Shown here one piece after another: positions 6,294 through 26,471 of a DNA stretch of 64,000 nucleotides. The stretch spans positions 5,245 through 69,244 of the forward strand of contig JABCTC010000011.1 in assembly GCA_018238545.1 (NCBI GenBank). The letters run 5' to 3'. Every line of letters begins with the position of its first letter. The stretch's first letter is position 1. A program made the position numbers and the translations under genes. The notes beneath the pieces were generated by a model. It searched no databases. It saw only the letters and a program-made list of their open reading frames with translations, and had not been told where the DNA came from. This DNA comes from Candidatus Heimdallarchaeota archaeon (GTDB taxonomy: Archaea > Asgardarchaeota > Heimdallarchaeia > Heimdallarchaeales > Heimdallarchaeaceae).

Positions 6294-9200
6294 TTATATG
6301 AATCGTTTTCTAAGAAGATATTTTTTGTTAACAAGAGTGAAAACTGTATTCAAAATATCATCTAATTCTACATTTTGGAATTCAGTTATTATTGAACTAA
6401 CAGATACTGATTCAGATTTTACTATATAGTTAGTAATTTTCACATTAATATCTTTTAGTTTCTTAATATCCTTCTTCTTTTTATCATTCAATTGCAGTGG
6501 GAAGAATAACCAAATATACAAAGTTTCAGCAATTTTGTCTTGAATTAGATTCTTCTTTTCAACATAAGGATCCATTTTGCCATCCCATACACCCTCTATT
6601 GAGAAGGAATATTCAAACCACATTATTAAATCAAACAATCTAGATGTAAGTTCACTGCTTATCTCCTCAGATGAAAACATGAAAACTGAATACTGTTCAG
6701 CACTAGCAGTATTAACTACAAAATTTCTGTATTCTAGTTTCTTAATCCCACCGGTACCCATTCCTCCAATTTGTTTACCCATTGAAGCTACTACTGAGAG
6801 AAAACCTGTAATCAGCGAAGTATCTACAGTCTTCTTGTACTCAATATCATATTCAAACACTGGAAGGCTTGTCTCATTGTGAATGAATAGAAGTTTCCTA
6901 AGAGACAAGATATTTTCAAACAATGCTACAAGATTCGATCCTTCAGAAACGTCAACTATATCCCCTTTACCTTTCCCTCTTTTATTTCCAACAACAGCAA
7001 CAATTGATATTATCGCGATCAGAACGATTGAAACACCTATGATTACACCTATCAAATAAGGAGGAAATTCAGAAGGAGGAGTAGTAGGGGGGGGAGTAGT
7101 AGGGGGGGGAGTAGTAGGGGGGGCAGTTACTTGATTAATCACAACATCAAATGTTGTTTCAAGTTTCTCGTTGCTATAACTAGATTTGAAATGTGATTTT
7201 GATATATCCAATACTAAATCAAATTCATTGAATCGAATTGCTTGAGAGGAGATAGTAACATAGTTAATCTCATCTTCATAATTAACATAATAATCTTCTT
7301 GAGCCACTATTGCTCCTTGGATTACTATTGACAATTCGCTTTCCGATACCTCCATTGGGTTTCGGTCAGCATCAGTTTCATTGATCAATCTGAAAGATAT
7401 GATCAAATCTTCAGTAGAGTTGCTTTCTATAGAAGTTTCTATAGGTTCTACAGAGAATATATTGAATATTTCAAGATTAAGAATCACATGATGATTTTCT
7501 AATAGGATGCTCGTTGTAGTAAGCTCAATTGTATAAGAACGAGCTGTAATATTATCATCAAAGGTAATACTGTGAAAATCATTATTGGAGGTTAAATTCC
7601 CATTATCTCCCCAACTTGTTTGATATTCGATTGTGGTGTTTTCTATTATTTCTCCATAACTAGTAAAGAAAGGTTCACTTAACTTGTAATAGCTACTATT
7701 AATAAAAAGTTCATCCCCATTCTGTCGAACTATGGTTTGGGTAACGTTACTTACCCAATTACTGTTATCAGGAATTTCCTCCCATTCAACATTGAAGTAA
7801 GTAGAAGCTTGGACATAAATTGGTTGAGAGTAGATACCTATTTCTGTACCGTTGTTCCAATAAACAAATGCTGTCCAGATTCCTTCAGGGTCGCTTCCAT
7901 AAACGGAAGGATCAAGGGTTATCTCAGATGAGTATAACCCTGGACCATCTGGTGTGAAATCTAGAAGAGTATATGGGGACAAATCAGTATAAGTCAAATT
8001 GATTGGAAGACTTGTTTTTAGAGCAATTATCTCTCCATCAGGGTTGAATAAAGTAAAGTTTAGTGTCCCTGAAATGGTATTTTCTATAAGTGTTATTGTT
8101 GAGTAAATGGTAGAACCCTCATAACCTGTAGCATTTATTCCATCTGTAGTCCAATGACCTAAGGAAAACAGATTTGTTGGTTCCTCTTCATTTGATAATT
8201 CCAGTGATTGAATGAAATTAGGACTAGAAGTTTCTAACCTAAAATACCCAGCTGACACATTAGAGTCTAAATAACATAGATAAGTATCACTGGAAAGTAT
8301 AGTTGGAAAGGTATCAGTATCATTATAATAACAAATTGGACTATCGTTCCAATCACTTATTGTTGCTACATGTATCATTCTCTCATAAATTGAGAATGTG
8401 GAAGGATCTACAGATGAAACATCCCAAGTTAAGTTCCAATATATTGAGTAATCTCCAGCTGTTGAGTTAAATGCCGCAAAGTAAGAATCAGCAGTTATTG
8501 AGTTTATGAAACTGTAAGAGTTGTTGAAGGTTATTTCTAAAGAAGTGTCACTTGTTAGATTATGTAGACCTATTGAAGTAATTTGAGAATCTATGTCTAG
8601 GACATCAATGTCATTATCCTTCAATGTAATTCTATTTAAGTCTTTGAATTCCATTGCTGAACCAGTTTGATTTGAAGGTAGTAATTCAACATTTAAAGTA
8701 AAATCAACAGATGGAAGATAATTCCAAGTTAATAGATTGTCCATGTAGTATGAATCACCGAGATATGGGGGCACTGAATTACTATGCCAAAAATAGAATT
8801 TAGGACCTATTGAAGTGATATCTGTAAAAGTTGCAATAACATAATATTTCCCTTGATCTAGAATTATATCTGTAAAATCATAATACAAGAATCCCGAGAT
8901 AATTTGATTAGTAGTATTATAGGGTCCATCAACACTTGATGAGTAAATTTGACTCATATTAGGCTGACCAGAAATTTCATCTGCTTTGACAATAATTAAG
9001 TCAAAATCGTTTATTCCTGTCTGGCTTCCATCTGTACTCAGATGAAGTTCTGCACCATAAAACATAGCATATTCCCAAGGAACATTGAAACTTTGTGCTA
9101 TAGCATGTTTAGTATCGTCTAGATGATCGTCACCATCTTCTTCGAGTTCAATCGGATAAAAATCTTGTTTAGCAAGAACTTGTGTCATATTGTAGTTTAA

Positions 9201-9569
9201 CAAAGAAGAATCGTAAGCTGAAGCGATATCAACATTCGTAAAATTATCTTCAAAATATCCAGTTAAAGAATTATAGGTTAAATTAAGAGAAAAATCGTCA
9301 TAAACAGTTAGTATATCTTCAACATTAACATTATTTCCTGAACCACTTAGATTTGTTACAGGAGTATATGGAAAAGAACTGTAATCTTCGAGTAAATTTG
9401 GCATTTGATCTACTGGATTTATTTGTTCTAGATTATCTTTACCAAGGAAATCATTAGTGTTTGTAGCTGTTAAGCCTTTTAGACTTGTAAGAGTAATGGA
9501 AAATATAAATAAATATGCTAAAATGATAATTGATGAAACTTTTGACCCTTTCGATAAACCCCTAAACAT
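6294..9569 (-). CDS. Large single-pass membrane protein: signal/anchor, ~800-aa sequon-rich ectodomain, PTTPP stalk, TM helix, 230-aa cytosolic module (paralog family member 1)
   Basis: N-terminal hydrophobic segment SSIIILAYLFIFSITL. More than 20 N-x-S/T sequons by eye. Stalk PPTTPPPTTPPPTTPP, then TM LIGVIIGVSIVLIAIISIVAVVG. The C-terminal module aligns with 9757-10449 and 13364-14047. Confidence 0.85.
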   Translation of the reverse strand: MFRGLSKGSKVSSIIILAYLFIFSITLTSLKGLTATNTNDFLGKDNLEQINPVDQMPNLLEDYSSFPYTPVTNLSGSGNNVNVEDILTVYDDFSLNLTYNSLTGYFEDNFTNVDIASAYDSSLLNYNMTQVLAKQDFYPIELEEDGDDHLDDTKHAIAQSFNVPWEYAMFYGAELHLSTDGSQTGINDFDLIIVKADEISGQPNMSQIYSSSVDGPYNTTNQIISGFLYYDFTDIILDQGKYYVIATFTDITSIGPKFYFWHSNSVPPYLGDSYYMDNLLTWNYLPSVDFTLNVELLPSNQTGSAMEFKDLNRITLKDNDIDVLDIDSQITSIGLHNLTSDTSLEITFNNSYSFINSITADSYFAAFNSTAGDYSIYWNLTWDVSSVDPSTFSIYERMIHVATISDWNDSPICYYNDTDTFPTILSSDTYLCYLDSNVSAGYFRLETSSPNFIQSLELSNEEEPTNLFSLGHWTTDGINATGYEGSTIYSTITLIENTISGTLNFTLFNPDGEIIALKTSLPINLTYTDLSPYTLLDFTPDGPGLYSSEITLDPSVYGSDPEGIWTAFVYWNNGTEIGIYSQPIYVQASTYFNVEWEEIPDNSNWVSNVTQTIVRQNGDELFINSSYYKLSEPFFTSYGEIIENTTIEYQTSWGDNGNLTSNNDFHSITFDDNITARSYTIELTTTSILLENHHVILNLEIFNIFSVEPIETSIESNSTEDLIISFRLINETDADRNPMEVSESELSIVIQGAIVAQEDYYVNYEDEINYVTISSQAIRFNEFDLVLDISKSHFKSSYSNEKLETTFDVVINQVTAPPTTPPPTTPPPTTPPSEFPPYLIGVIIGVSIVLIAIISIVAVVGNKRGKGKGDIVDVSEGSNLVALFENILSLRKLLFIHNETSLPVFEYDIEYKKTVDTSLITGFLSVVASMGKQIGGMGTGGIKKLEYRNFVVNTASAEQYSVFMFSSEEISSELTSRLFDLIMWFEYSFSIEGVWDGKMDPYVEKKNLIQDKIAETLYIWLFFPLQLNDKKKKDIKKLKDINVKITNYIVKSESVSVSSIITEFQNVELDDILNTVFTLVNKKYLLRKRFI
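7078..7122. repeat. Three perfect tandem copies of a 15-nt unit (ggagtagtagggggg) containing G7-G8 homopolymer runs; encodes the (PPTTP)x3 stalk on the minus strand
   Basis: Read directly at 7078-7092, 7093-7107 and 7108-7122. Confidence 0.9.
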
Positions 9570-9756: not shown

Positions 9757-12700
9757 TCAATCAGCATTGTTTGTTATCAGTTTTTCTTCTTTCACCAAAA
9801 TCATTATCCTTTCAAGAATCGCTTCATTAGAGTATTCATCAAGTTGATCCATAATAAGAGCAGTAGTAGCTTTGCCTTTACCATTGATAAAGGAGACAAT
9901 CTCTTGGTCTATGGTTTTTAGTTTACTAAGATCTTCAAGTGTCTTTGATGGTGCTTGTAGTGGAAACATGAACCAAAGGAATAGTTCTTCTACCACTTTT
10001 TCGTTGATACTTGTCTTATATTCGTTGAATATATCCATCGAGCCTTCCCATTTTGCCCCCTCGTACCCGAAAATCACATCAAACCATTTAACAAGATTAT
10101 CTAACCCTTGTTCAAATTCTACTTCTAATTCTGTATCAGAGAAAGAATATATAGTATACGCTCCACTTGAAGCACTTGTTACAACAAAATTATAATATTC
10201 TATTTTCTTAATACCTGTTCTTGCACCACTCATTTCTGCCCCTATTGATGATATTGCTTGAAGTACTCCACTGATTATTGACGGATCTAACTCTGCTCTC
10301 TCATCCAAACTGTATTCATAAATTGGAGAACTAGTTTCATGATGAACTACAAGTATACGTTTTATCATAAATGCAGATTGAAAGATAGCTCGAGCCTTTG
10401 ATTTGTCCGCTTCATGTTCTTCTTTTCTCTTGCTCATTTGTGTTCTAGTAACAAAGAATGCTCCTACACCTAGTCCTGCAACTACAACTAGTGACAGTGC
10501 AATTATCAAACCTATTGGTAGTCCTCCAGTTGGTGTTTTAATACTAATTGTTGCAAGAATAAAACTCAGCACTGTGTCATATCCTTCTTTGGACGCTGTT
10601 ACTCTAACGTTCAGTGTTTTGGTTTCAGGTTCGTTAATTCGAATTATGAGTGTATATATACCATCATTCTCTGAGTTTTCAATTATTTCCACACCAGGTT
10701 TTGCTATATCTAAAGATACTTCTATTGTTGCACCTTTAATTTGTTCAGAATGTGTTTCATCTATCCATTCAAAAGTCAAAGTTATCTGACTGCTAGTATT
10801 TGTCTCTGAAACTGTAATGATTGGTTCGACAGAGGTATCTGCAACAGCTAATATGTCGTAATTGATTGTATTTGATGCTATCGGATCACCTAGCGATTCA
10901 ACAAAATAGATTTTCTGAACAGAGATTTCTACTTCATAATTTGCAGGTAAGTTATCTAATACATCATTATAGATAGTTAACAAGAAGTGATCATCGACCC
11001 CAACACTCATGTATTCAACCATTGGTGTTAATGAAGTTCCATTTATTGCTACATGTATGGAAAGGTTGTTAGTAATTGGAGCACTTCCATTTGTTACATC
11101 TACAACAGAAAATGTAAATTCTGCGTTATCAATGTAATAGTACACCGGATTTACAGATTGAGGTTCAAGGACACGGAACTCATGTAGTAGAATCAAAGAA
11201 AATTGATCTGAATGAGATTGTAAGAATGGTCCTTTTGCATATATATCTATGAGATAGGACCCTTCTGTTATATTTGGTGCTAGACTATAACTATAATTTC
11301 CTGAATCAAATGCAAGATTATCTGTATCTAACCAACTTGTTGTATAGTAAACATCTCCGTTAGGAATGTATGTTCCTAAACCTGTAAAGAATGGATCGCT
11401 GATATTGTAGTAACTAACTTTAATGTTAATCGCTTCACCATTTATTCTAGTAATCTCAGTAGAGGATAATTCTAACCAGTCTCCTCCTACTTCTTCTTCT
11501 ACGAAGAATGAAGCCAATGTTGGTTTGAAAACAGTAATTGTTTGAGTGAAAAGTCCTGCTTCCGTACCGTTTGTCCAATAATAAACCACTGTCCAATATC
11601 CTTCAGCATCTGATGCAGATATAGACGGATCAAATGTAACATTGGCTTTGAAAAGTGAACCTTCTGTATAAGCATCATTAGTATAGGAAGAATTGTCTAG
11701 ATAGATAAGATTAACCGGCAATGAGCTCTTCAGTGGAAGTATATTACCATTACTATCCAATACGGAATAATTTAGTGCCCCCCCGCTCGTTATGAAATTC
11801 TCTATGCTTGCAGTCGACAGTATTGTCGTTCCTTCAAAACCAAATGCGTGTGTCTCATTATTTGTCCAGTATCCTAACTCTTGAAGTGTATCACTTATGG
11901 ACGTCGTTGTGATGTAATTTGGACTTGTAATCGTGAACTCAAAGTTTCCGCTATCATATTGGTTTATGTTAAATAAGATGGATAAATTATACTCAAAAAC
12001 ATTTCCAACCCAACTTCCAGTTATTGGAATCCCCCCATTCAATAAAAATGAGAAAGCTGTTTTATTCCAATCATTTGGAACAGAAAATGCTTGAAATCTA
12101 GTGGTGTTTGTATATGTTCCCAAACTCACAACATCTGTAGTCCAAGAATGAGTCCATGTGTTACTATACTCATTATATGTAGAATTAAGAAGATCAATTA
12201 CCGAAGTAGAAGCGTAAGTTCTACTAAATTGATAACTACTGTTCGATTGAAGAATAACGGCCCTATTTGATGTTAATATATGAAGCCCAGTTCCACTAAT
12301 AATTTGATCGAGTGTTGTAACATTAGCTCCATTATCAGTTAGATCCACTGTTGTTGGATCTGTATATGTCAGGGGATTTCCACCACTATCTGATTCTTGT
12401 ATATGAGAGGCAAATGCAACAGTTCTCCCATTTGGATCAGGACCGACCCAGCTTGTCCCATCATGATAATACGTTATTCCTTGAGAAATTTGTTGGCTTC
12501 TCCAGAATAATCCTGAATCATCATCAACATCAATAGTTGAAAGGTTTGCAACAACGAAATAGGATCCAATACTTAATGTATAGTCTACAAAATCGATGTA
12601 CGCCATGATGTCTATACTACTCACGGGAAGAGGATTAGCTAGACTAAATGTGTTATCAATGGCAGTACTTAGAATTGCACTCATATTGGGTGTTCCGGAC

Positions 12701-13269
12701 ACACTTTTTTCTACAAGAAATATATCTATTTCATCTCCAACATAACCTAATCCGAAAATTTCTAATCCCAATTGGGCTCCATGGAATATAGCATAAGGAG
12801 TAAGTACATCAAACCCAATAGCATAACTTATTCTTGAAGATGTTAATTCATCAACAATTCTATTTCCTCCATCTTGAATGAAATCTACATCAATAGCACT
12901 TTCAAGTGTCAGATTATATTGTAATATGTCATCTGAATAACTTGTGGGAGAGGTAATAGTGTAAGAATTATTATAACCATTAGTTGAATTCAAATCAATG
13001 TTAAGAGAATCGTATACAGCTAAAGTGTCATCAATGACAAGAGAATCTCCTGAATCCGATAAACTATCAATGGGTGTATAATCATATTTAATTCGGTTGG
13101 TCAAATCCGAAGTATTTGGTGAGATGTTATCATCATCGATAATATTTGAAAAAGAATCTATGGAGAAATTGTTGAGATTGTTTTCTATTAGAATTGATGA
13201 CACAAGTGAAAATGTGAAAAGCGCAATAATTGTACATGATAAAATTTTTTTGTTGATATTATGACCCAT
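9757..13269 (-). CDS. Large single-pass membrane protein, paralog of 6294-9569: sequon-rich ectodomain, TM helix, 230-aa cytosolic module (family member 2)
   Basis: N-terminal anchor ILSCTIIALFTFSLVSSIL and TM LPIGLIIALSLVVVAGLGVGAFFV. Several ectodomain blocks are shared with 6294-9569, for example EGYWTVVYYWTNGTEAG versus EGIWTAFVYWNNGTEIG. It has the conserved cytosolic module. Confidence 0.85.
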   Translation of the reverse strand: MGHNINKKILSCTIIALFTFSLVSSILIENNLNNFSIDSFSNIIDDDNISPNTSDLTNRIKYDYTPIDSLSDSGDSLVIDDTLAVYDSLNIDLNSTNGYNNSYTITSPTSYSDDILQYNLTLESAIDVDFIQDGGNRIVDELTSSRISYAIGFDVLTPYAIFHGAQLGLEIFGLGYVGDEIDIFLVEKSVSGTPNMSAILSTAIDNTFSLANPLPVSSIDIMAYIDFVDYTLSIGSYFVVANLSTIDVDDDSGLFWRSQQISQGITYYHDGTSWVGPDPNGRTVAFASHIQESDSGGNPLTYTDPTTVDLTDNGANVTTLDQIISGTGLHILTSNRAVILQSNSSYQFSRTYASTSVIDLLNSTYNEYSNTWTHSWTTDVVSLGTYTNTTRFQAFSVPNDWNKTAFSFLLNGGIPITGSWVGNVFEYNLSILFNINQYDSGNFEFTITSPNYITTTSISDTLQELGYWTNNETHAFGFEGTTILSTASIENFITSGGALNYSVLDSNGNILPLKSSLPVNLIYLDNSSYTNDAYTEGSLFKANVTFDPSISASDAEGYWTVVYYWTNGTEAGLFTQTITVFKPTLASFFVEEEVGGDWLELSSTEITRINGEAINIKVSYYNISDPFFTGLGTYIPNGDVYYTTSWLDTDNLAFDSGNYSYSLAPNITEGSYLIDIYAKGPFLQSHSDQFSLILLHEFRVLEPQSVNPVYYYIDNAEFTFSVVDVTNGSAPITNNLSIHVAINGTSLTPMVEYMSVGVDDHFLLTIYNDVLDNLPANYEVEISVQKIYFVESLGDPIASNTINYDILAVADTSVEPIITVSETNTSSQITLTFEWIDETHSEQIKGATIEVSLDIAKPGVEIIENSENDGIYTLIIRINEPETKTLNVRVTASKEGYDTVLSFILATISIKTPTGGLPIGLIIALSLVVVAGLGVGAFFVTRTQMSKRKEEHEADKSKARAIFQSAFMIKRILVVHHETSSPIYEYSLDERAELDPSIISGVLQAISSIGAEMSGARTGIKKIEYYNFVVTSASSGAYTIYSFSDTELEVEFEQGLDNLVKWFDVIFGYEGAKWEGSMDIFNEYKTSINEKVVEELFLWFMFPLQAPSKTLEDLSKLKTIDQEIVSFINGKGKATTALIMDQLDEYSNEAILERIMILVKEEKLITNNAD

Positions 13270-16799: not shown

Positions 16800-16997
16800 T
16801 TGAAAGGAAATATCAAAAGAATGATTTCTGATAAAGGTTATGGATTCATCACTGTAGAAGGAGAAGAAAAAGATCTCTTTTTCCACCGTACTGGTACTAC
16901 AGGTGAATTTGATGATCTCAATGAAGGAGACGAAGTCGAATTCGATCTAGAAGAAACCGATAGAGGAACTCAAGCAAATAACGTAAACAAAGTCTAA
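16800..16997 (+). CDS. csp: Cold-shock domain protein (CspA family)
   Basis: KGYGFI (RNP1-like) and LFFHR (RNP2-like) motifs in a 65-aa OB-fold-sized protein. It uses a TTG start preceded by GGAGG. Confidence 0.8.
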   Translation: MKGNIKRMISDKGYGFITVEGEEKDLFFHRTGTTGEFDDLNEGDEVEFDLEETDRGTQANNVNKV

Positions 16998-17138: not shown

Positions 17139-18395
17139 TTAGCTTTGATTCAAGATTAACCTAACATTAAGATCAAGTTCTTCACCTTTCTTTGTTAGAC
17201 CTGTAATATATAATGTTTCATGGTTTCGTATTCCTTGTTCTTTCAATGTTGAATCCATTTCTACATCTACTGGGTCTTTTTTATCAATTATCCAAAATGA
17301 AGGTAAAAATTCAGGATCATAACTATATCCTCTGTTTTTTATGATAGTTAGTAAAACATCAACAGTTGCAGTTGCAGGTATTTTTACTTCTTCAATTATT
17401 GTAGCATTCCTACCACAGAGCATGCATTTCTTATTTGGTGGTTTTTCTATATAGAAGAATTTCCCTACTAATCCATTGTAAATAACATATTCAGGATTTA
17501 CAGTACCAAGTTCAATTCCTTTGAGATGGTGCATAAGTTTCAATGCTTCTTGTGATTGTAAAGAGGCTATTACAGCATTAATACTAATTATTGTTGGGTC
17601 GTGTTGGTCAACCATTTTCACAGCTTCATCCAAAGAAAATACCTTTTCAGAGGGGAAATGCTCTTTCACTAAGTTATTTGCATAGTTTATTACAAGATTC
17701 ATTTCTTCCAAAATGGTCGTATCAGGGGGTCTATTGTTCTTTGACTCAAAATATAGTTGTCCTTTCAACAAACAGTGAGATTTTTTTCTTGGTATTCCCA
17801 CTAGTGTACAAGCTGCTAAAGTTTCTCTTTCTCGTTCTTGCTGTGGATCACATTGAAGGCATGCATTTTCATCTGGCAAATAGGTGTAAACATGACCATA
17901 ATATGTTGCAGTTCCTCCATCAATCATTGGTTTCTTAAACTGAACCGCTCTTCGTATTAGCTCGTTTCTTGCTGTAACAGAATCTAAACCAGAAACATAC
18001 ATATCAGCTGTAGCATATACCTCTGGGTCAACATCTTCTAGATTGGAATGGTGCCAAATATATTTACTGTAAGGATTTATTTTCATTAGAGCTCTTGCTG
18101 CAACTTTAGCTTTAGGTTCTCCTTCATCTGCATCTGAGAAAAGTATTTGTCTATTAAGATTGGAATATTCAATAATATCTAAATCGATAAGGTGAATAGT
18201 TCCTACACCGGCCATAGCTAAGTTCTTTGCTATTTCTGTTCCCAATCCCCCAACTCCAACAATTAAAACCGTTGAATCTTTCAAAGCTTTCTGATTCCAT
18301 CCAGGTAATCTAAGTTGTCTATCAAAACGTATTCTCTCATCTTTTGAAAGGGTTTCATCGAAGAAATTAGATTTTTTTATGTTTTTTGCATTCAT
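17139..18395 (-). CDS. E1-like ubiquitin-activating enzyme (ThiF/MoeB/UBA adenylation domain with catalytic-Cys region and C-terminal Ub-fold-like domain)
   Basis: Motifs: GVGGLGTEIAKNLAMAGVG..IDLDIIEYSNLNRQILF, paired CxxC (CLQC, CMLCG), and the Cys segment LAACTLVGIP, which resembles the P-x-C-T motif of UBA enzymes. Confidence 0.85.
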   Translation of the reverse strand: MNAKNIKKSNFFDETLSKDERIRFDRQLRLPGWNQKALKDSTVLIVGVGGLGTEIAKNLAMAGVGTIHLIDLDIIEYSNLNRQILFSDADEGEPKAKVAARALMKINPYSKYIWHHSNLEDVDPEVYATADMYVSGLDSVTARNELIRRAVQFKKPMIDGGTATYYGHVYTYLPDENACLQCDPQQERERETLAACTLVGIPRKKSHCLLKGQLYFESKNNRPPDTTILEEMNLVINYANNLVKEHFPSEKVFSLDEAVKMVDQHDPTIISINAVIASLQSQEALKLMHHLKGIELGTVNPEYVIYNGLVGKFFYIEKPPNKKCMLCGRNATIIEEVKIPATATVDVLLTIIKNRGYSYDPEFLPSFWIIDKKDPVDVEMDSTLKEQGIRNHETLYITGLTKKGEELDLNVRLILNQS

Positions 18396-18526
18396 TTAAA
18401 GCACGCGTTCCATCTATCTATATTATTCAATGATAAATTCTGTGATATTTAAATTTAAATGTAGTTTTCAGTAGAAAAATAAAGAGACTCAATTAGAGTC
18501 TTCATTAAAAAATAAAAGATTAAGAA

Positions 18527-18886
18527 TTATCCTGCTGTTGAAACTGGGATCAGTAGAACTGTATCTCCATCTTCAACTCCATAATTTTCAAGAACATCGT
18601 CATTGTCACATGTTCTTCCAGCATGGGATAGATGGAATTCATCAGGTGGTAATCCAAAAATCTGGCTAACTGTATATTTTATATCACTAATTGGGGCATC
18701 AGTTGCTACAACAAGTTTTTCTTGTTTTGGACTTGGTCCAATGGTGCTTTGGAAATATACACTTATTTTCTTACCTGCTGGTGTTTTAGTCTTAGCAGGA
18801 GTTTTGGATTTTATCTCGGTTTCAATAACCTTTTCTTCTTCTTCTTCTTCTTCGTCAAAAGAAATTTCTTCAAATTCTTCGCTCAT
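18527..18886 (-). CDS. Ubiquitin-like beta-grasp protein with ~40-aa acidic/basic N-terminal extension; C-terminus ..STAG
   Basis: The C-terminal 55 aa align by eye with ubiquitin: ISDIKYTVSQIFGLPPDEFHLSHAGRTCDNDDVLENYGVEDGDTVLLIPVSTAG versus [54 protein letters not shown]. Confidence 0.8.
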   Translation of the reverse strand: MSEEFEEISFDEEEEEEEKVIETEIKSKTPAKTKTPAGKKISVYFQSTIGPSPKQEKLVVATDAPISDIKYTVSQIFGLPPDEFHLSHAGRTCDNDDVLENYGVEDGDTVLLIPVSTAG

Positions 18887-19141
18887 TTTTTTTCAATCCT
18901 GTTAGTTTACAAATACTATTATCGAATACAATTATTAAAAAATTACCTATATTATCCAAAATAACTGTTCTTATTTAAAAACTTAAATAAACCTAAAATC
19001 TTAATTAATAACAATAAAGTTACAAATTGGGGTTTAGATAGGTTTTCAAACAAATTAGTCAATATTTATTCAAAAGCTGAGGTTTGAAAACGTTCAAAAA
19101 TCAGTAAAAATATGAAAGGCTAGAACAGGTGTGACTTACAC

Positions 19142-19876
19142 ATGGGTAAAAGAAACAAAAAAAAAGGTATTTCGAATAAAGTTCCTAAGCAAAAATTCCC
19201 GTTCGATTCGAAAATCCCAAAACATAAATTGCCTAAAGATAAAATACCCAAAAGTCAAATAAGGGATGAAGATTTTTTCCCTCCAGAAAAAAGAAAAACT
19301 CGAAAAATAGAATCAAAGCCTGTAAGATCACAGCTCAGAGACAGTCGAGAATCAGGGAAAAATAAAGGGATTCCAAAAGAGAAGATTGTTTCTAAAATCC
19401 CAAAAAGTCAAAAATTTAAGCAAAACCGTAAAAATAGCAAAAACATACCAAAACAGAAGATACCTAAAACAAAAATCCCCAAACAGGACTCTTTTTCAAG
19501 AACAGAATCACCTAATTACATTCCACAAGAAGAAAAAGCTAAACCAAAGAAAAAGGAGTCTCTTCCACCTAGAAGAGAGAGGTTCAAAGAAATTGATTCT
19601 ATAGATTCTAAAGCACTAAAAAAAGAAGAGAAGAAAAAGAGAGAAGAAACACCTCCTTCTGATGATCGAGATAAATTTTCAGAAATTAAAGAATCAGATT
19701 CTCATTCACTACCAAAGGAAGAAAAAAGAGAAAAGAGAACAAGAGAAGCTCCTGCAACTTCCAATATTGAGGAAACAAAAAAGGATAAGATACCAAAACA
19801 AAAAATACCAAAACACAAAGTTCCAAGCCAAAAATATCCTAAACAAACTAAGAAACCAAAACAAAAAAGAAGCTAA
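19142..19876 (+). CDS. Highly basic, Lys/Pro-rich repeat protein ([IV]PKxK repeats), predicted disordered
   Basis: Repeats include VPKQKFP, KIPKHKLPKDKIPKSQ, NIPKQKIPKTKIPKQ and KIPKQKIPKHKVPSQKYPKQTKKPKQK. The A-rich DNA also gives spurious alternate-frame ORFs. Confidence 0.6.
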   Translation: MGKRNKKKGISNKVPKQKFPFDSKIPKHKLPKDKIPKSQIRDEDFFPPEKRKTRKIESKPVRSQLRDSRESGKNKGIPKEKIVSKIPKSQKFKQNRKNSKNIPKQKIPKTKIPKQDSFSRTESPNYIPQEEKAKPKKKESLPPRRERFKEIDSIDSKALKKEEKKKREETPPSDDRDKFSEIKESDSHSLPKEEKREKRTREAPATSNIEETKKDKIPKQKIPKHKVPSQKYPKQTKKPKQKRS

Positions 19877-19894
19877 ATAGAGATAAGATATTAC

Positions 19895-20473
19895 TCATAC
19901 AAATATAGCCATAATAGCTGAGTAGAGATAAATTATCCCAGAAATTAGTAGAAAGAAATTTTCAAAATATGTTACTGATGTAACAATATAAATGGTGGGG
20001 ATAATTAACATTAGTAAAAATCCAGCAAATTTAGGATTCGTCCCTTTTTCACTTGTACTTCTAAATCTAATGAATGGATATCTAATAAAGGTTCTAAAAA
20101 GCAAAAATGTACTATATAGATAATATGGTAATAAAAGAAAATCAACAGCATTGATTTCCCTGAAACTTTCATCAGGAAACCCACTAATTGTAACTATACC
20201 AAAATCATTTACACCAAAGAGTATTTGAGCTAGCAATATTAAAACTGGAACAATGGGCAAAATAAAAACGTAAATAAATTCGTTGAATGTGGCTTTATGT
20301 TTTAAATAGAACAAACTTCGAATTACATAGAATAAGGATATGAAGACATATATGGATAAGAAAATGAAAAATTTGCCTAAGTCAACATTTCCCTCAATGA
20401 AATAGTATATGGAGACACCTACTAAGGATAACGATGTTATAAATGATGCTGTTATATGTGTCCAAGTACCCAT
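19895..20473 (-). CDS. Multi-pass membrane protein, paralogous to the TM domain of the adjacent RING-like protein
   Basis: 192 aa with about 6 hydrophobic segments. It shares the block LKHKATFNEFIYVFILPIVPVLILL with KKHKAILASTQFLLLPFVILLMG of 20534-21640. Confidence 0.6.
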   Translation of the reverse strand: MGTWTHITASFITSLSLVGVSIYYFIEGNVDLGKFFIFLSIYVFISLFYVIRSLFYLKHKATFNEFIYVFILPIVPVLILLAQILFGVNDFGIVTISGFPDESFREINAVDFLLLPYYLYSTFLLFRTFIRYPFIRFRSTSEKGTNPKFAGFLLMLIIPTIYIVTSVTYFENFFLLISGIIYLYSAIMAIFV

Positions 20474-20533
20474 TTTTTGACCTCAATATTTTCTAGATTA
20501 GAAGTATTTAATCTCTAGCTTTCCGCACTCATT

Positions 20534-21640
20534 TCATAATTTGTTTACTACTCTTTCAATATAGATCTTTGTTGTGATTCTGTATTTAGGATTTCTTACA
20601 TATGAATTTGAAATTGGTTTATTACATCTTGCACAATATTTTGAATTTTGGTACCAGCTTCTGAATTCATCTTCATGTGCTGGATATTTGCAATGAGGAC
20701 AGAGGATTATTTTTCTTGTATCCTTCTTCTCAAAATCCATGAAACATATTATACATTTTACTTCTTCTTTACTAGCCTTACCATTTGGGAAATAATCACG
20801 AACTGTAGTTTTAGTTTTAGTGGTTTTTGTGGATTTCTTAGTTTTCTTTCTGGTTGTTACTTCAATACCAGGAGCAATTTTAGCACTTCTTCTAGCTCTA
20901 GAAACTGACTTTGTGGTTCTAGTTCTTGTTGGAGAGGATAGTTGTCTGCTTCTGGAAGTTTGAGAAGAAGACCTTCGAACTGTAGTTGATGAGGTTCTTG
21001 CCCTAGTAGAGCTTCTGCTAGGAGAACTACTAGACATTATTACTGTACGTCTTTCTGATTTTATCAGTCTAACAAATATGAAATATCTAAAAATGAAAAC
21101 TAAGTATATAATTGTGAAAATGAGACTAACTAGATCAATTTTCCCGTTTATAAAAAATCCTAGTAGAATCGTGAAAACAAAAACACTATGAATTAATAAA
21201 GGAATAATTCTTTTTTTCCTCACTTTTCGTCTAATTGCTATTGCTGGCCATTTTCCCGAATAATAATTATTGAAATGCATAGTTAATATAATAACTGGGA
21301 CAATTAAAGATAAAGAAATTAAATTGAAGAATATCTCTACTGCATTCCCACTAGAAGATATCAAAAACATCTCGTAAGTTGCTGCAAACGAAGTGATGTA
21401 ATTGCCCATCAGAAGTATAACAAAAGGGAGAAGTAGGAATTGAGTACTAGCAAGAATAGCTTTGTGTTTCTTATAGTGTCTCCTTTCTAGGAGGTACCTT
21501 AATGCTACAACGACATACAAAGTGATGAAAAAAATCGTCAGCATTATAGGTGTTTCACTCTGGATTATAACATAGAGTATTCCAACAACTAACCCAACAA
21601 TTCCGATTGCTAGATAAGTTTTGAAATTATTTAACTCCAA
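20534..21640 (-). CDS. Multi-pass membrane protein with Ser/Arg/Thr-rich linker and C-terminal RING-like zinc finger (candidate E3 ligase)
   Basis: C-terminal CIICFMDFEKKDTRKIILCPHCKYPAHEDEFRSWYQNSKYCARC has a cross-brace-like Cys/His pattern. It sits inside the Ub-type gene cluster. Confidence 0.7.
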   Translation of the reverse strand: MELNNFKTYLAIGIVGLVVGILYVIIQSETPIMLTIFFITLYVVVALRYLLERRHYKKHKAILASTQFLLLPFVILLMGNYITSFAATYEMFLISSSGNAVEIFFNLISLSLIVPVIILTMHFNNYYSGKWPAIAIRRKVRKKRIIPLLIHSVFVFTILLGFFINGKIDLVSLIFTIIYLVFIFRYFIFVRLIKSERRTVIMSSSSPSRSSTRARTSSTTVRRSSSQTSRSRQLSSPTRTRTTKSVSRARRSAKIAPGIEVTTRKKTKKSTKTTKTKTTVRDYFPNGKASKEEVKCIICFMDFEKKDTRKIILCPHCKYPAHEDEFRSWYQNSKYCARCNKPISNSYVRNPKYRITTKIYIERVVNKL

Positions 21641-21666
21641 TTAAAATACAACTCATATAATTTTTA

Positions 21667-22395
21667 TTAAGATTTATCCTCTTTATTTTTCATGAAAGTG
21701 TTTATAGACTCATAACACGCTTCACTACTCATTCCTTGAACTTCAACAGATAGCTGATAATACTTTTGTTTGTCTTGATGAATGCGAAATACACCAATCC
21801 CATAATCCTCTGGTGAGAGCATCAGGGGGTCGATAACAAGTGCTATAGATTTGTTCCAAAATGTTTGATATCTTAGATGTGTTCTGTAGTCATCACCACT
21901 CAAGAATGGAGTGTAACTTGGATGGGAATGAGCCCAACCGATTATGAAATGCTCGTTACCTTTCTTGTGGAAGATTTCTGTAAATATGTTTTGATCAACA
22001 ATTTCTACGCTTACAGCATCTCCTTGATCAACAGGCCAGTAATCCTCAACAATGATTTGCTCTAGCGGTGTTTCTTCATCGCTAATTTTTCCTGTAAGTA
22101 ATCCAATTACTTCTACCCATTTCTTCTTAGGGATAGAATCATTAGCATAAGATAAAGCATGTTTTGCAAGTTTTAGATAAGCTTTGGGCTTCAATACAAT
22201 CTCTGAAATAGGTTTGATTTGAAGTATATCTTCAGTTATGGTTTCTTCGCTAATTTCTTTAGCTTCCTTTTCCTTTTCCTCTACAATTTTATCAACTTTG
22301 TACAATTCTAGAGTTTTTTCAATTGCTTCAATTTTCTCAAGGAGTTTTTTATATTCAGCAGGATAATTGGTTCCATCATCTTCCATAATTTTCAC
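21667..22395 (-). CDS. JAMM/MPN+ metalloprotease (Rpn11/CSN5-like isopeptidase)
   Basis: Complete JAMM motif: E (WVEVIGLLTG) followed by HSHPSYTPFLSGDD, which matches H-x-H-x7-S-x2-D. Confidence 0.85.
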   Translation of the reverse strand: MKIMEDDGTNYPAEYKKLLEKIEAIEKTLELYKVDKIVEEKEKEAKEISEETITEDILQIKPISEIVLKPKAYLKLAKHALSYANDSIPKKKWVEVIGLLTGKISDEETPLEQIIVEDYWPVDQGDAVSVEIVDQNIFTEIFHKKGNEHFIIGWAHSHPSYTPFLSGDDYRTHLRYQTFWNKSIALVIDPLMLSPEDYGIGVFRIHQDKQKYYQLSVEVQGMSSEACYESINTFMKNKEDKS

Positions 22396-22418
22396 AACAA
22401 ATTAATTATATTTTAGAT

Positions 22419-22952
22419 TTACCAGTATGATTTTGCATACTTTTTACTTATTGTACTCGCTTTTTTGATGAATTTCTTTTTGTTATTTAAAAATTCCAAA
22501 GCCGCTTCTTTGTTAAATACATCTTTGGGATTTACATAAGCTCCTTCGACATTAAACATGGCAAGTATTGAGTGAATGACAGTAGTGATGCTTTTGGATG
22601 GAGACCAACCATCGTGTTTTCCTACTAAATCATTATCTACAAGAGCGAGACAAATATTTCTTTTCTTTGGATATTCTTTTGGATTAGGCCAGAAATTAGG
22701 ATGCCAAATAGGTGTGTGAAGTCTTACAAATGGAGGTTTGTAAGGATAATTTGGTCCAAAGAATATTTCTAATTTATATTTACCTCCAGCATAAGGAGTC
22801 CCCTTAGGAGCTTTGAATCCTATAGCTAGATGATCCATTGACTTCTTAGCTTTGGGGAATGATTTTACTTGCGCAACTATGCCTTCTTTATGTAATTTCC
22901 TCAAGGCTTCGTAATCTTTTATGACTCTTTGTTTTCTAATTTTTATCACCAT
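22419..22952 (-). CDS. E2 ubiquitin-conjugating enzyme (UBC fold)
   Basis: YPYKPPFVRLHTPIWHPNF contains the HPN motif, followed by the catalytic Cys in RNICLALV. Confidence 0.85.
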   Translation of the reverse strand: MVIKIRKQRVIKDYEALRKLHKEGIVAQVKSFPKAKKSMDHLAIGFKAPKGTPYAGGKYKLEIFFGPNYPYKPPFVRLHTPIWHPNFWPNPKEYPKKRNICLALVDNDLVGKHDGWSPSKSITTVIHSILAMFNVEGAYVNPKDVFNKEAALEFLNNKKKFIKKASTISKKYAKSYW

Positions 22953-23109: not shown

Positions 23110-23802
23110 ATGAGCGTATTTCATATTGTAGGAAATGAATTGATTCCAATCACGGAGCCTTATCAGTTTCTTAATGGTGATGTCTATATTATTGAAACAA
23201 AAAACAATCTGTGGATATGGTTAGGTTCTAAATCTTTTGCTGATGAAAAATTTATTGGTTCTTGGGGAGCAAAGAAAATCGAAAGTCAAAATAAGGAGCT
23301 GAAAATTGAAACCATCAATCAAGGTTTCGAGCCTGCAGAGTTTAAGGAACAGATTGCCTTTGAAATTGTTGAAGGAGATACCTTAGGTTTTCTCAAATCA
23401 ATTGACACAAAATATGAGAAAGATTTCAGATTGCTTCAGATTAAGGAGGATGATGAAGGAGCAGTGATAGTTTCAGAACTACCTATTGAACACAAACACT
23501 TTCAATCCGATGATGCTTTTGTTCTAGATGCTTACAGCGTTCTTTATGTCTGGATTGGTAAAGATAGTCAGGTTAAAGAGAAATATGAAGCTGGAAGAAT
23601 CACTAGACTGTTAGAAGTAGAGAGAAAAAGATTTCCAATTATTTATGTAATCGAAGAAGAGAACGAACCTGATGGTTTTCGTGAGCTTCTCTACAAATTG
23701 GGATTAAGGGATGGAATTATGGAATTAAGAAGGACAGTGAAAAGAGTAGACGAGAAAAAAGGTTCTACATCCAAAAAATGGTGGCAGTTCTGGAAAAGAT
23801 GA
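23110..23802 (+). CDS. Two-domain gelsolin/villin-like actin-regulator homolog with basic Trp-rich tail
   Basis: Two gelsolin-repeat cores, GDVYIIETKNNLWIWLGSKS and DDAFVLDAYSVLYVWIGKDS. The tail ends KKWWQFWKR. Confidence 0.7.
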   Translation: MSVFHIVGNELIPITEPYQFLNGDVYIIETKNNLWIWLGSKSFADEKFIGSWGAKKIESQNKELKIETINQGFEPAEFKEQIAFEIVEGDTLGFLKSIDTKYEKDFRLLQIKEDDEGAVIVSELPIEHKHFQSDDAFVLDAYSVLYVWIGKDSQVKEKYEAGRITRLLEVERKRFPIIYVIEEENEPDGFRELLYKLGLRDGIMELRRTVKRVDEKKGSTSKKWWQFWKR

Positions 23803-25436: not shown

Positions 25437-26471
25437 ATGAATAGATATTATCTAAAACGCCTTCTCTCAGCAGTTTTTATAATTGCTATCATCGTAGGGG
25501 GAGTTTTTATTTCGTATGATATTGTTGGAAATACTTTTAGGTTTTATTATTTCCTTTTCTATGTTGTAGGATGCATTATAATTATCCCCACTCTTTTGAG
25601 AATTTATTGGTACATTAAGTTAAAGAGAGAAACTCGTAAACCTTCTAAATTAACTGAAGTCTATATCGATCATGCTAAGGAACTAGTTACAGATAAGGAA
25701 AAGATACTTACAAAAATCGTATCCACTATTAGAGAACTTGGTGGAGAGATTATAGAAAAATATCTTGATCAAGTTCCTAGAGTAATTTTTTATTTCCCAA
25801 ATGAACATAAATACAATTTTTTTCATAGAACAACAGTAAAGGTTCTTTCAGTTAATGAACTAGTTATAGATACGATGATGAAAGCAGATTATCCTTTGGC
25901 TTTCAGTATTAAGCGGAAAAGAGGAATGAAGAGTGATACTGGTGATGATGTTGATTTACCTAGTTCCAGTGAATTCTACATCTTTCATTCAAATCATCAC
26001 TCATTCTATGAGACTCTACTTGAAAAAGAAGAAATTAACAAAATGCTAATCGACATGAAAGAAGATTTGAAGCAATTTACACTGAATCGTAAATTTGCAG
26101 AAGCACGTATCAGAAACAGTGAAAAGGTATCAACATACCTTGAACTTCTTGCTAAGTTGTATGAAGAGCTTCTACTAAAGGACTTCGATGATTTGGAAGT
26201 TGAAGAGATTCTTTGTTATCAGTGTGATAGTGTTTTTGAAGCTAATGAGGAGACTTGTAATCAATGTGATGCTCATAGACCAACATGTAAAGTCTGTTTA
26301 CTTGACTTAAAACCTTCGGAAAAGAATATTGTTGTTAAAACACCTTGTTGTGAAACATACGCACATAAAAAACATCTCATAACATGGTTGGAGCTGAACA
26401 GTAAGTGTCCTAATTGTAAAACTGACTTATTCTTATGGTTAAGAGGTTTAAAGCAAAATAATCAAGGATAG
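25437..26471 (+). CDS. Membrane-anchored protein (2 N-terminal TM helices) with zinc ribbon and C-terminal RING-like finger (second candidate E3)
   Basis: Zinc ribbon CYQCDSVFEANEETCNQCD, then CKVCLLDLKPSEKNIVVKTPCCETYAHKKHLITWLELNSKCPNCK. The [HC]-C-x4-H core is shared with 20534-21640. Confidence 0.65.
   Translation: MNRYYLKRLLSAVFIIAIIVGGVFISYDIVGNTFRFYYFLFYVVGCIIIIPTLLRIYWYIKLKRETRKPSKLTEVYIDHAKELVTDKEKILTKIVSTIRELGGEIIEKYLDQVPRVIFYFPNEHKYNFFHRTTVKVLSVNELVIDTMMKADYPLAFSIKRKRGMKSDTGDDVDLPSSSEFYIFHSNHHSFYETLLEKEEINKMLIDMKEDLKQFTLNRKFAEARIRNSEKVSTYLELLAKLYEELLLKDFDDLEVEEILCYQCDSVFEANEETCNQCDAHRPTCKVCLLDLKPSEKNIVVKTPCCETYAHKKHLITWLELNSKCPNCKTDLFLWLRGLKQNNQG

Follow-up and report, generated by a model that had tools for sequence, protein, structure and literature searches.

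A ubiquitin-type modifier operon with a predicted membrane-embedded RING protein in a Heimdallarchaeota genome

Ubiquitin signaling at membranes (endoplasmic-reticulum-associated degradation (ERAD), receptor down-regulation, ESCRT sorting) is usually seen as a eukaryotic elaboration. A compact gene cluster from Candidatus Heimdallarchaeota raises the question of whether a ubiquitin-type ligation system tied to a membrane is also encoded in archaea. The window analyzed here, a stretch of 64,000 nucleotides (GenBank assembly GCA_018238545.1, contig JABCTC010000011.1, positions 5,245 to 69,244 of the forward strand), carries seven adjacent open reading frames (ORFs) at its positions 17,139 to 22,952: a ubiquitin-like modifier (Ubl), an activating enzyme (E1), a conjugating enzyme (E2), a JAMM metalloprotease, a membrane protein ending in a RING-like finger (RING-TM), a RING-less paralog of its transmembrane (TM) domain (the TM paralog), and a Lys-rich protein. 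Is this a complete conjugation system, and is the membrane protein its ligase (E3)? We consider it likely that the cluster is a complete Ubl conjugation system, probably acting at a membrane, and that it is the Heimdall-clade version of an Asgard Ubl-E1-E2-JAMM-RINGTM operon; the comparisons below show the identities of the genes, the conservation of their catalytic motifs, their synteny, and a predicted topology and RING fold, and from these we infer the enzymatic steps, a location at the membrane, and the parts played by the two extra genes. Three of its features appear to be undescribed: an E3 with six TM helices, an Ala-Gly modifier with a conserved N-terminal tail, and an atypical RING metal site.

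The enzymes of the cluster were readily assigned. The E1 matched Pfam ThiF at 186.2 bits (curated cutoff 28.1) and contains a G47-V-G-G-L-G nucleotide loop, structural CxxC pairs at residues 179 and 324, and a C196-T-L motif, with GxGGxG and CT[LIVM] kept in 67/67 orthologs. The region around Cys196, AACTLVGIPRKKSH, aligned with the catalytic-Cys motif of yeast Uba1, PLCTLRSFPNKIDH, and the nearest solved structures were eukaryotic Uba1, UBA3, and SAE2. A family profile built from 15 orthologs matched UBA3 at 2.6e-51 over positions 34–354 (UBA3 residues 35–364), a span that includes the catalytic-Cys domain, followed by UBA1, UBA7, and SAE2 at ~1e-45 and UBA5 at ~5e-22; its match to MoeB (2.6e-41) covered the adenylation core only (positions 14–183). 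Judged from these alignments, the protein is a canonical eukaryote-type E1 nearest the NEDD8 E1 UBA3, catalytic-Cys domain included. The sequence-profile match ends at position 354 of 410, and the C-terminal ~70 aa of the ortholog from Heimdallarchaeota AB_125 (OLS32357) were earlier assigned to a UBL domain, with 95% Phyre2 confidence to SAE2 3kyd (PMC5654768, Supplementary Table 2B).

The E2 scored 92.2 bits against Pfam UQ_con (cutoff 27) and carries HPN at residues 84–86, a putative catalytic Cys101 (HPN-x14-C101), and a GWSPS loop, with HPN and the Cys kept in 73/73 orthologs. Its PDB matches were UBE2T, Ubc9, and Ubc13 (1e-14 to 1e-20); relative to UBE2T, it has a 7-residue insertion between HPN and Cys101. 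The protease matched Pfam JAB at 49.6 bits (cutoff 22.5) and holds a complete metal-site motif, H156-S-H-x7-S-x2-D, which all 77 orthologs examined retain as H[ST]H-x7-S-x2-D, along with a Glu in EVIGLL that aligned to EVMGL of Rpn11. It is preceded by an N-terminal extension of ~60 aa with many charged residues, and its best PDB matches were the Caldiarchaeum Rpn11-like protein 6fjv (1e-11), then proteasomal Rpn11/PSMD14.

The modifier belongs to the ubiquitin family by both Pfam (PF00240, 30.1 bits, cutoff 25.4) and a profile search of the PDB, which returned ubiquitin and the Caldiarchaeum Ubl (6fj7, 2mqj). In the window it ends ...LLIPVSTAG, with the stop codon immediately after. The C-terminus LLIP[AV]STAG was present in all 70 operon Ubls, so that the final pair was Ala-Gly throughout and Gly-Gly in none; Gly was the last residue in 49 (~70%), and the remainder had tails of 1–3 residues (K, C, I, M, WI, RGY, RLI, YV, ITM, and others). 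Such tails past STAG imply proteolytic maturation at Gly: the pattern is the one expected if this Gly is the conjugation site and a protease removes the tails. The operon's JAMM is plausibly that protease, by analogy with Caldiarchaeum Rpn11, for which tail removal from its pro-ubiquitin was shown experimentally (PMC5654768, PMC6043591). The N-terminal extension of the Ubl is also conserved, with an acidic and aromatic stretch followed by an invariant S-K-T-P, and the counts of differences by codon position (3/1/23) indicate very strong purifying selection. The invariant Ala-Gly end, together with the N-terminal tail, sets these modifiers apart as a family of their own. Loki-type loci additionally encode a second Ubl, also ending AS[TI]AG, and larger proteins of 264 aa, ~296 aa, and 585 aa that carry a C-terminal Ubl of the operon type (L004:2631-2996, L004:3043-3837, L031:12781-13671, and L083:9691-11448 for the group as a whole); in the ~296-aa protein, NCPKCR may be a zinc-binding motif containing Cys, and another region is rich in repeats and probably helical. 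Since these proteins end in the Ubl, whole proteins might be conjugated through it.

A preliminary description of this locus, made from the letters alone, had read in it an E2 with HPN and catalytic Cys, a complete JAMM motif, a RING-like finger on a multi-pass membrane protein, a ubiquitin-like beta-grasp protein, and a ThiF/UBA-type E1 with nucleotide loop, CxxC pairs, and reactive Cys. Each ORF is present at exactly the coordinates and on the strand given there, and HMM, PDB-profile, or fold searches bore out every one of these domains, with the qualification that the RING scored below Pfam cutoffs.

The main new result is the conservation of these genes as a unit. A pattern scan that took a single genome for each GTDB species returned 138 RING-TM relatives, of which 80 loci were kept; four more from contigs brought the compared set to 84 (labeled by L-numbers; L020, for example, is AB_125). 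Within this set, RING-TM was accompanied by JAMM in 82 loci, E2 in 77, E1 in 71, and Ubl in 70, and the operon genes lay on the same strand with tens of bases between them. Loci short of a component were mostly on short contigs ending within or beside the operon. The commonest order, Ubl-E1-E2-JAMM-RINGTM on one strand, was seen in metagenome-assembled genomes (MAGs) labeled Promethearchaeota (Loki), Hermod-, Hod-, Thor-, Odin-, and Sigynarchaeota, and in some labeled Heimdallarchaeota. Given the E-values of the domain matches and synteny in >70 independent loci, chance is excluded as an explanation.

The near-constancy of RING-TM across the sampled Asgard lineages makes a membrane E3 candidate the rule rather than a local oddity. 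The preliminary description had listed the membrane-embedded candidate E3 among the notable points here; the embedding stands as a prediction, but the gene is the standard fifth member of the Asgard operon. Comparison of gene orders shows instead that what is particular here is the arrangement: about 22 Heimdall-clade loci, including AB_125, share the order E2-JAMM-RINGTM-TMpar-(Lys-rich, opposite strand)-Ubl-E1-(cold-shock-domain gene, opposite strand). Because it is confined to these loci, we read the arrangement as derived, with two insertions specific to the clade; both of the extra genes that had been described as interleaved are indeed present, though in this clade alone.

An HMM search of 1.84 billion representative proteins found ~90 RING-TM clusters at an E-value of 1e-30 or better, mostly full-length (350–450 aa). 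The 69 RING-TM homologs examined were unnamed or annotated "hypothetical", and the organisms named were Heimdall-type or other Asgard MAGs, which suggests a small family restricted to Asgards as far as labels show. None of the 69 has a precomputed Pfam domain. The Asgard origin proposed for the window from its gene content is supported, in that all relatives came from Asgard MAGs bar one. That one, a full Ubl-E1-E2-JAMM-RINGTM operon in a MAG labeled Candidatus Deferrimicrobium, a bacterium (L059, DATKTP010000227.1), probably reflects a binning error, with an Asgard contig assigned to the wrong MAG, rather than horizontal transfer. Loki-type operons are flanked by folE2, amidohydrolase, RibD, radical-SAM, and pterin-binding genes in 33–46 of the 84 loci; we considered these pterin and riboflavin metabolism genes as members of the system and rejected them, judging their position to be lineage synteny.

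The membrane protein was examined as a candidate RING-type ligase. Hydropathy predicts six TM helices (residues 8–26, 32–50, 61–79, 103–121, 145–163, and 170–188), and the loop charges obey the positive-inside rule, with both termini and two basic loops predicted to be cytoplasmic. This predicted topology places the RING in the cytoplasm, alongside the soluble E1 and E2. AlphaFold2 (AF2) modeled the membrane domain with a predicted local distance difference test (pLDDT) score of 76–94 and residues 198–278 at <50; the linker is predicted to be disordered, and its length varies between homologs. While the full-length AF2 model gave no significant PDB match for either domain, a RING-only model was informative (pLDDT 91.5, predicted template-modeling score 0.80). 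The first 12 Foldseek matches of this model in the PDB, and nearly all of the 50 matches listed, were RING or U-box E3 domains or RING-like zinc fingers (probability 0.97–1.0, target-normalized template-modeling score up to 0.77), including TRIM-type RING, Ring1B/Bmi1, Rad18, LubX, RNF24, EL5, RNF165, RNF38, HRD1, the Pex RING complex, TRAF6, and GATOR2. In a viral structure library, the majority of named matches were also RING or U-box proteins. Sequence-profile matches in the PDB ran from the IFT144 zinc finger through RNF24 (5e-3) to further RING-H2 E3s.

The finger follows the pattern C296-x2-C299-x14-C314-x2-C317-x4-H322-x2-E325-F-x2-W329-x6-C336-x2-C339, in which C296, Ile297, C299, C314, C317, H322, E325, W329, C336, and C339 were invariant in 29 sequences; the His of the "CPHC" stretch was not conserved. 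Numbered in the RING-H2 frame by alignment to RNF24, ligands 1 and 2 are C296 and C299, C317 aligns to ligand 3, ligand 5 is H322, and ligands 7 and 8 are C336 and C339. The usual His-4 position is occupied by Tyr or His319; its role as a ligand probably falls to C314, which is invariant and lies two residues upstream. The finger thus combines seven invariant Cys/His with an invariant Glu325 at the ligand-6 position. Ile297, immediately after the first Cys, and Trp329 fall at positions that contact the E2 in established RING-E2 complexes such as c-Cbl-UbcH7. We conclude that the C-terminal domain is RING-folded, that its metal site is atypical, and that it probably binds E2; it may act as a ligase. 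The window also encodes a second membrane RING protein (25437-26471, plus strand; a counterpart is found in L006), in which two TM helices at the N-terminus are followed by a long cytoplasmic stretch and, at the C-terminus, by a RING-H2-like finger that scored 25 bits against zf-RING_2, slightly below cutoff. Its finger has a His aligned to Glu325 of the operon RING (hhalign E 7e-5), supporting Glu325 as a ligand position.

Several observations weigh against a complete, membrane-bound ligation system. Pfam RING models (zf-RING_2, Prok-RING_1, zf-RING_16) scored the finger at only 15–19 bits against cutoffs of 27–29. The Foldseek E-values, 2e-3 to 0.1, are modest for a small domain, though the hits are near-unanimous. 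Since Glu325 replaces Cys/His at ligand 6, the zinc stoichiometry and E3 competence of the domain are uncertain. The membrane domain had no Pfam match and, in the full-length AF2 model, no significant structural relative in the PDB. Because the modifier ends in Ala-Gly, E1 and JAMM specificity cannot simply be transferred from ubiquitin. The roles proposed below for the TM paralog and the Lys-rich protein are drawn from position and composition alone. Finally, a search of sequencing runs for transcript support found the window sequence in DNA metagenomes only.

The RING-related doubts bear on an alternative in which the Ubl cascade is genuine but RING-TM is not its E3. Its degenerate zinc finger would rather receive or anchor the Ubl, the E2, or JAMM at the membrane, or the protein would be the main substrate, with conjugation proceeding independently of an E3. 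Archaeal SAMPylation provides a precedent for E3-independent conjugation. The sub-threshold scores against every Pfam RING model, in which even the best family member reached only 1e-5 and remained below cutoff, and the missing canonical zinc ligand leave room for such a role. The best sequence match, to the C-terminal finger of IFT144, is to a domain without known ligase activity, and the long Ser/Thr/Arg/Lys-rich cytoplasmic linker would offer many Lys acceptors. Set against this, the fold matches were almost exclusively RING and U-box E3 domains, both presumed E2-contact residues are invariant, and the His at the Glu325-aligned position in the second membrane RING protein fits a ligand site. 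The gene also directly follows E2/JAMM in 77–82 of 84 loci, the slot occupied by the RING E3 in published archaeal operons. We therefore regard a non-ligase role for RING-TM as unlikely and retain the interpretation of a complete conjugation system with a membrane-bound RING E3.

Under the interpretation of a complete system, the Ubl of the window would be made with its reactive Gly already exposed (...STAG-stop), and the 1–3 residue tails of orthologs would be trimmed by JAMM. The E1 would adenylate Gly119 and hold the Ubl as a thioester on Cys196, before handing it to Cys101 of the UBC-fold E2. The six-helix membrane protein would tether its RING in the cytoplasm by a linker of ~90 residues, and the RING would bind E2~Ubl and promote transfer to lysines of membrane or membrane-proximal substrates, a modification that JAMM may also reverse. 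In the window's clade, the RING-less paralog would probably be the E3's membrane partner, and the Lys-rich, probably disordered protein may be a substrate dedicated to the system, or a cofactor.

That the smaller membrane protein is a paralog of RING-TM had been proposed at the outset. BLASTP was too weak to decide the matter (E 4e-4 over 45 aa), but family-to-family hhalign gave 91.4% probability (E 9e-7, 156 collinear columns), and the two proteins have a Y-x-K-H-K-A loop motif in common, the paralog lacking linker and RING. It occurs in 22 loci of the window's Heimdall clade only, immediately downstream of RING-TM in 21, and its codon-position differences are 18/8/46. On the simplest reading, the E3 and this RING-less paralog form a pair within the membrane. 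The Lys-rich protein was also correctly recognized as such: Lys accounts for 25% of its residues and Pro for 11%, it contains ten (I/V/L)PKxK-type repeats, and it is probably disordered. Its ORF is kept in position and sequence in 17–21 Heimdall-clade loci. Codon-position differences of 22/19/60 show relaxed constraint with a third-position excess, and the latter indicates a real, fast-evolving coding sequence. Its Lys content and position lead us to speculate that it could be a substrate or cofactor. No Pfam, NCBIfam, or PADLOC model matched either protein.

Ubl, E1, E2, and JAB-type protease are also the parts list of bacterial Bil operons, and a defense function, in which this system (like Bil or CBASS Cap2/Cap3) would tag viral or host proteins on infection, could be imagined from this resemblance and from weak PADLOC matches of the E1 core to CBASS "E1-E2" models (54 bits) and of JAMM to "JAB" models (17 bits). 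However, PADLOC matched none of E2, Ubl, RING-TM, TM paralog, or Lys-rich protein, and the E2 is a eukaryote-type UBC protein with HPN, not of the Bil CEHH type (PMC11354881). The locus and its flanks are, moreover, stably syntenic across lineages, and operon sequence divergence tracks lineage, as is typical of vertically inherited core genes and not of defense islands; a defense role is accordingly very improbable.

Least credible of all is a sulfur-carrier system (MoeB/ThiF with MoaD/ThiS, as in molybdopterin, thiamine, or tRNA thiolation pathways), which the top NCBIfam E1 matches, to MoeB/ThiF models, and the GenBank name of OLS32357 ("Molybdopterin-synthase adenylyltransferase") might suggest, since those matches cover the adenylation core alone (residues 14–199; best MoeB 129 bits against a cutoff of 266), the E1 profile favors UBA3, UBA1, and SAE2 through the catalytic-Cys domain, the Ubl has no MoaD/ThiS match in Pfam or NCBIfam, UBC E2, JAMM, and RING are co-operonic, and no rhodanese or sulfurtransferase partner is present. 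The combination named in the preliminary description as contradicting a ubiquitin-type system, a MoeB/ThiF-clade E1 with a MoaD/ThiS modifier and no E2 fold, is thus not what the searches returned. We also considered and rejected a UFM1-type system, which was suggested by the lone Gly at the C-terminus of UFM1 and by its action at the ER. Ufm1 homologs have, in addition, recently been reported in Asgards (PMC12962969). Here the Ubl belongs to the ubiquitin family, the E2 has HPN, which UFC1 lacks, and E1 similarity to UBA3/UBA1 far exceeds that to UBA5.

Table 1 Features of the Ubl conjugation cluster, in window coordinates.
Feature	Positions	Strand	Description and basis
E2	22419..22952	-	UBC-fold Ubl-conjugating enzyme, 177 aa
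JAMM/MPN+ metalloprotease	21667..22395	-	242 aa
RING-TM gene, whole	20534..21640	-	368 aa
RING-TM membrane domain, residues 1-190	21071..21640	-	Predicted from hydropathy, AF2, conservation in 29 homologs
RING-TM linker, residues 191-285, Ser/Thr/Arg/Lys-rich	20786..21070	-	Predicted from AF2 pLDDT, indel-rich alignment columns
RING-TM C-terminal RING-fold domain, residues 286-368 + stop codon	20534..20785	-	Predicted from invariant residues, RING-only AF2 model, Foldseek
TM paralog, RING-less	19895..20473	-	192 aa, 4-6 TM; hhalign to RING-TM membrane domain
Lys-rich protein	19142..19876	+	244 aa; composition, repeats, codon-position differences
Divergent intergenic region, Lys-rich/Ubl	18887..19141		255 bp; gene coordinates only
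Ubl modifier	18527..18886	-	119 aa; Pfam ubiquitin, profile vs PDB
E1	17139..18395	-	418 aa; Pfam ThiF, family profile, Uba1 alignment

Six of the seven ORFs lie on the minus strand, the Lys-rich ORF being the only one on the plus strand (Table 1). Gaps are 23 nt between E2 and JAMM, 26 nt between JAMM and RING-TM, 60 nt between RING-TM and the TM paralog, and 131 nt between Ubl and E1; the TM paralog and Lys-rich genes are convergent, 18 nt apart, while the Lys-rich and Ubl genes diverge. The short gaps and strand layout suggest that the minus-strand genes are transcribed as two or more units, among them E2-JAMM-RINGTM-TMpar and Ubl-E1, with one plus-strand gene between these, and the spacer of the divergent pair is presumed to hold the promoter region of both the Ubl-E1 unit and the Lys-rich gene.

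The genes around the cluster include a gelsolin-repeat protein (23110-23802, plus strand; Pfam Gelsolin 71 bits, two repeats), divergent from E2, with synteny that extends to the closest relatives (L006, L007, L023). Gelsolin counts among the eukaryotic signature proteins, and its presence fits an Asgard origin. On the other side, a 65-aa cold-shock-domain protein (16800-16997, plus strand) is convergent with E1. The position of this gene is kept across the Heimdall clade (L001, L007, L009–L011, L013, L015, L017, L020, L023), probably through lineage synteny. Two further adjacent minus-strand ORFs, at 6294-9569 (1091 aa) and 9757-13269 (1170 aa), had no Pfam match at an E-value of 1e-3 or better.

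A bolder interpretation, which we hold possible but doubtful, is that the operon constitutes a second dedicated Asgard Ubl pathway, apart from the Gly-Gly, small-RING, ESCRT-linked system and defined by its integral membrane RING E3 and its Ala-Gly modifier with a conserved N-terminal tail. If so, a pathway with a membrane-embedded RING ligase would have existed in prokaryotes before eukaryotes arose, and it could serve in quality control or sorting of membrane proteins or modify non-protein membrane targets. Its ligase might be related to the membrane RING ligases of eukaryotes or to IFT-A/GATOR2-type RING-like fingers, and in the window's clade a RING-less partner in the membrane and a dedicated, Lys-rich substrate would have been added to the ligase. 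Even short of a second pathway, if the six-TM RING is an active E3, membrane-tethered ubiquitin-type ligation was already present, as a compact five-gene unit, in archaeal relatives of eukaryotes, and the E1 and protease specificity of this modifier family would be directly comparable with that of ubiquitin and NEDD8.

The likeness of RING-TM to eukaryotic membrane RING E3s (Hrd1/synoviolin, TM RING-H2 RNFs, MARCH/RING-CH, and Pex2/10/12) lies in its architecture, a multi-pass membrane domain joined to a cytoplasmic RING, and in model and profile matches of the RING to HRD1 (6a3z, 6vjy), the peroxisomal RING complex (7t92), and RING-H2 fingers. The membrane domain, by contrast, has no detectable sequence or fold similarity to that of these ligases. 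As we read the pattern, the Cys4-His spacing of the finger resembles RING-CH/PHD-type fingers. MARCH proteins, however, have an N-terminal C4HC3 RING-CH followed by two TM helices; the RING-TM finger is C-terminal, after six TM helices, with Glu at ligand 6, and the RINGv model (PF12906) was not among the Pfam families listed for RING-TM, all of which places the protein outside that family.

The C-terminal finger of the IFT-A protein IFT144/WDR19 was the best PDB profile match of the RING, albeit a marginal one (8bda_I, E 1.8e-4), and the third-best fold match (8bbg_A, probability 1.0, 76 columns); the RINGs of GATOR2/SEAC were also among the fold matches. A C-P-x-C-K-[FY]-P-A motif is common to the IFT144 and RING-TM fingers. 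The IFT144 and GATOR2/SEA fingers end beta-propeller/alpha-solenoid proteins, whereas that of RING-TM ends a membrane protein, and we know of no E3 role reported for the IFT144 finger.

Among archaea, an E1/E2/RING cascade with a JAMM protease has been reconstituted from Caldiarchaeum (PMC5654768, PMC6043591), as has an ESCRT-linked E1/E2/RING cascade from a Helarchaeon (bioRxiv 10.1101/2023.07.25.550441; cf. PMC9192718). Both reconstituted systems pair a small soluble RING protein with a pro-ubiquitin of the Gly-Gly type (PMC5654768; bioRxiv 10.1101/2023.07.25.550441). The Asgard ubiquitin clusters already reported ("Clusters I-III", PMC5654768; ESCRT-linked, with Ub, UEV-Vps23, and RING E3, PMC9192718, bioRxiv 10.1101/2023.07.25.550441) belong to the same phylum and are of the same kind as the locus described here. 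In the portions of this literature available to us, they are described with a "small RING finger protein" and Gly-Gly (pro-)ubiquitin only, while the window has a membrane RING and Ala-Gly; the tested Helarchaeial system is ESCRT-linked, and its soluble RING has an N-loop (bioRxiv 10.1101/2023.07.25.550441). In a literature search, no source described an Asgard operon with a membrane-integral RING or with an Ala-Gly modifier, although figures, supplements, and the founding Asgard papers might hold an earlier mention.

The operon has nonetheless been glimpsed before. A supplement published in 2017 lists OLS32357 as an E1 that ends in a UBL domain (PMC5654768); the operon had therefore been catalogued at least in part, and it is a variant of a known system, not a new kind. 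In AB_125, where the locus spans HeimAB125_09780-09830, its neighbors are orthologs of the Ubl (OLS32358), TM paralog (OLS32360), RING-TM (OLS32361), and JAMM (OLS32362), all named "hypothetical protein" in GenBank; the accessible supplement text of PMC5654768 contains none of OLS32358, OLS32361, and OLS32362. Such annotations, together with the molybdopterin name carried by the E1, render the family invisible to keyword and Pfam-based surveys. The AB_125 ubiquitin aligned in PMC5654768 bears locus tag 14240, and the operon Ubl 09790, so AB_125 has at least two modifier loci.

A close functional parallel is the operon of Caldiarchaeum subterraneum, in which Ub, E1, E2, a small RING finger protein, and an adjacent Rpn11 fill the same five roles as in the window, and the resemblance proposed in the preliminary description between this locus and the Caldiarchaeum and Asgard operons holds for the kind of system, though not for the six-TM E3 or the Ala-Gly Ubl. 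Like the window E1, the Caldiarchaeum E1 is reported to be NEDD8-E1-like with a catalytic-Cys domain, and the window RING matches RNF24 (2ep4) and RNF165 (5d0k), the templates given for the Caldiarchaeum small RING finger protein (PMC5654768). The differences lie in how the parts are built and arranged: the E3 of Caldiarchaeum is small and soluble, whereas that of the window is a six-TM protein with a disordered tether; the window RING has Glu at ligand 6 and the extra invariant Cys314; its Ubl ends in Ala-Gly without a propeptide and bears a conserved acidic, SKTP-containing N-terminal extension; and its JAMM gene sits within the operon, between E2 and E3, in a cluster that has acquired two further genes.

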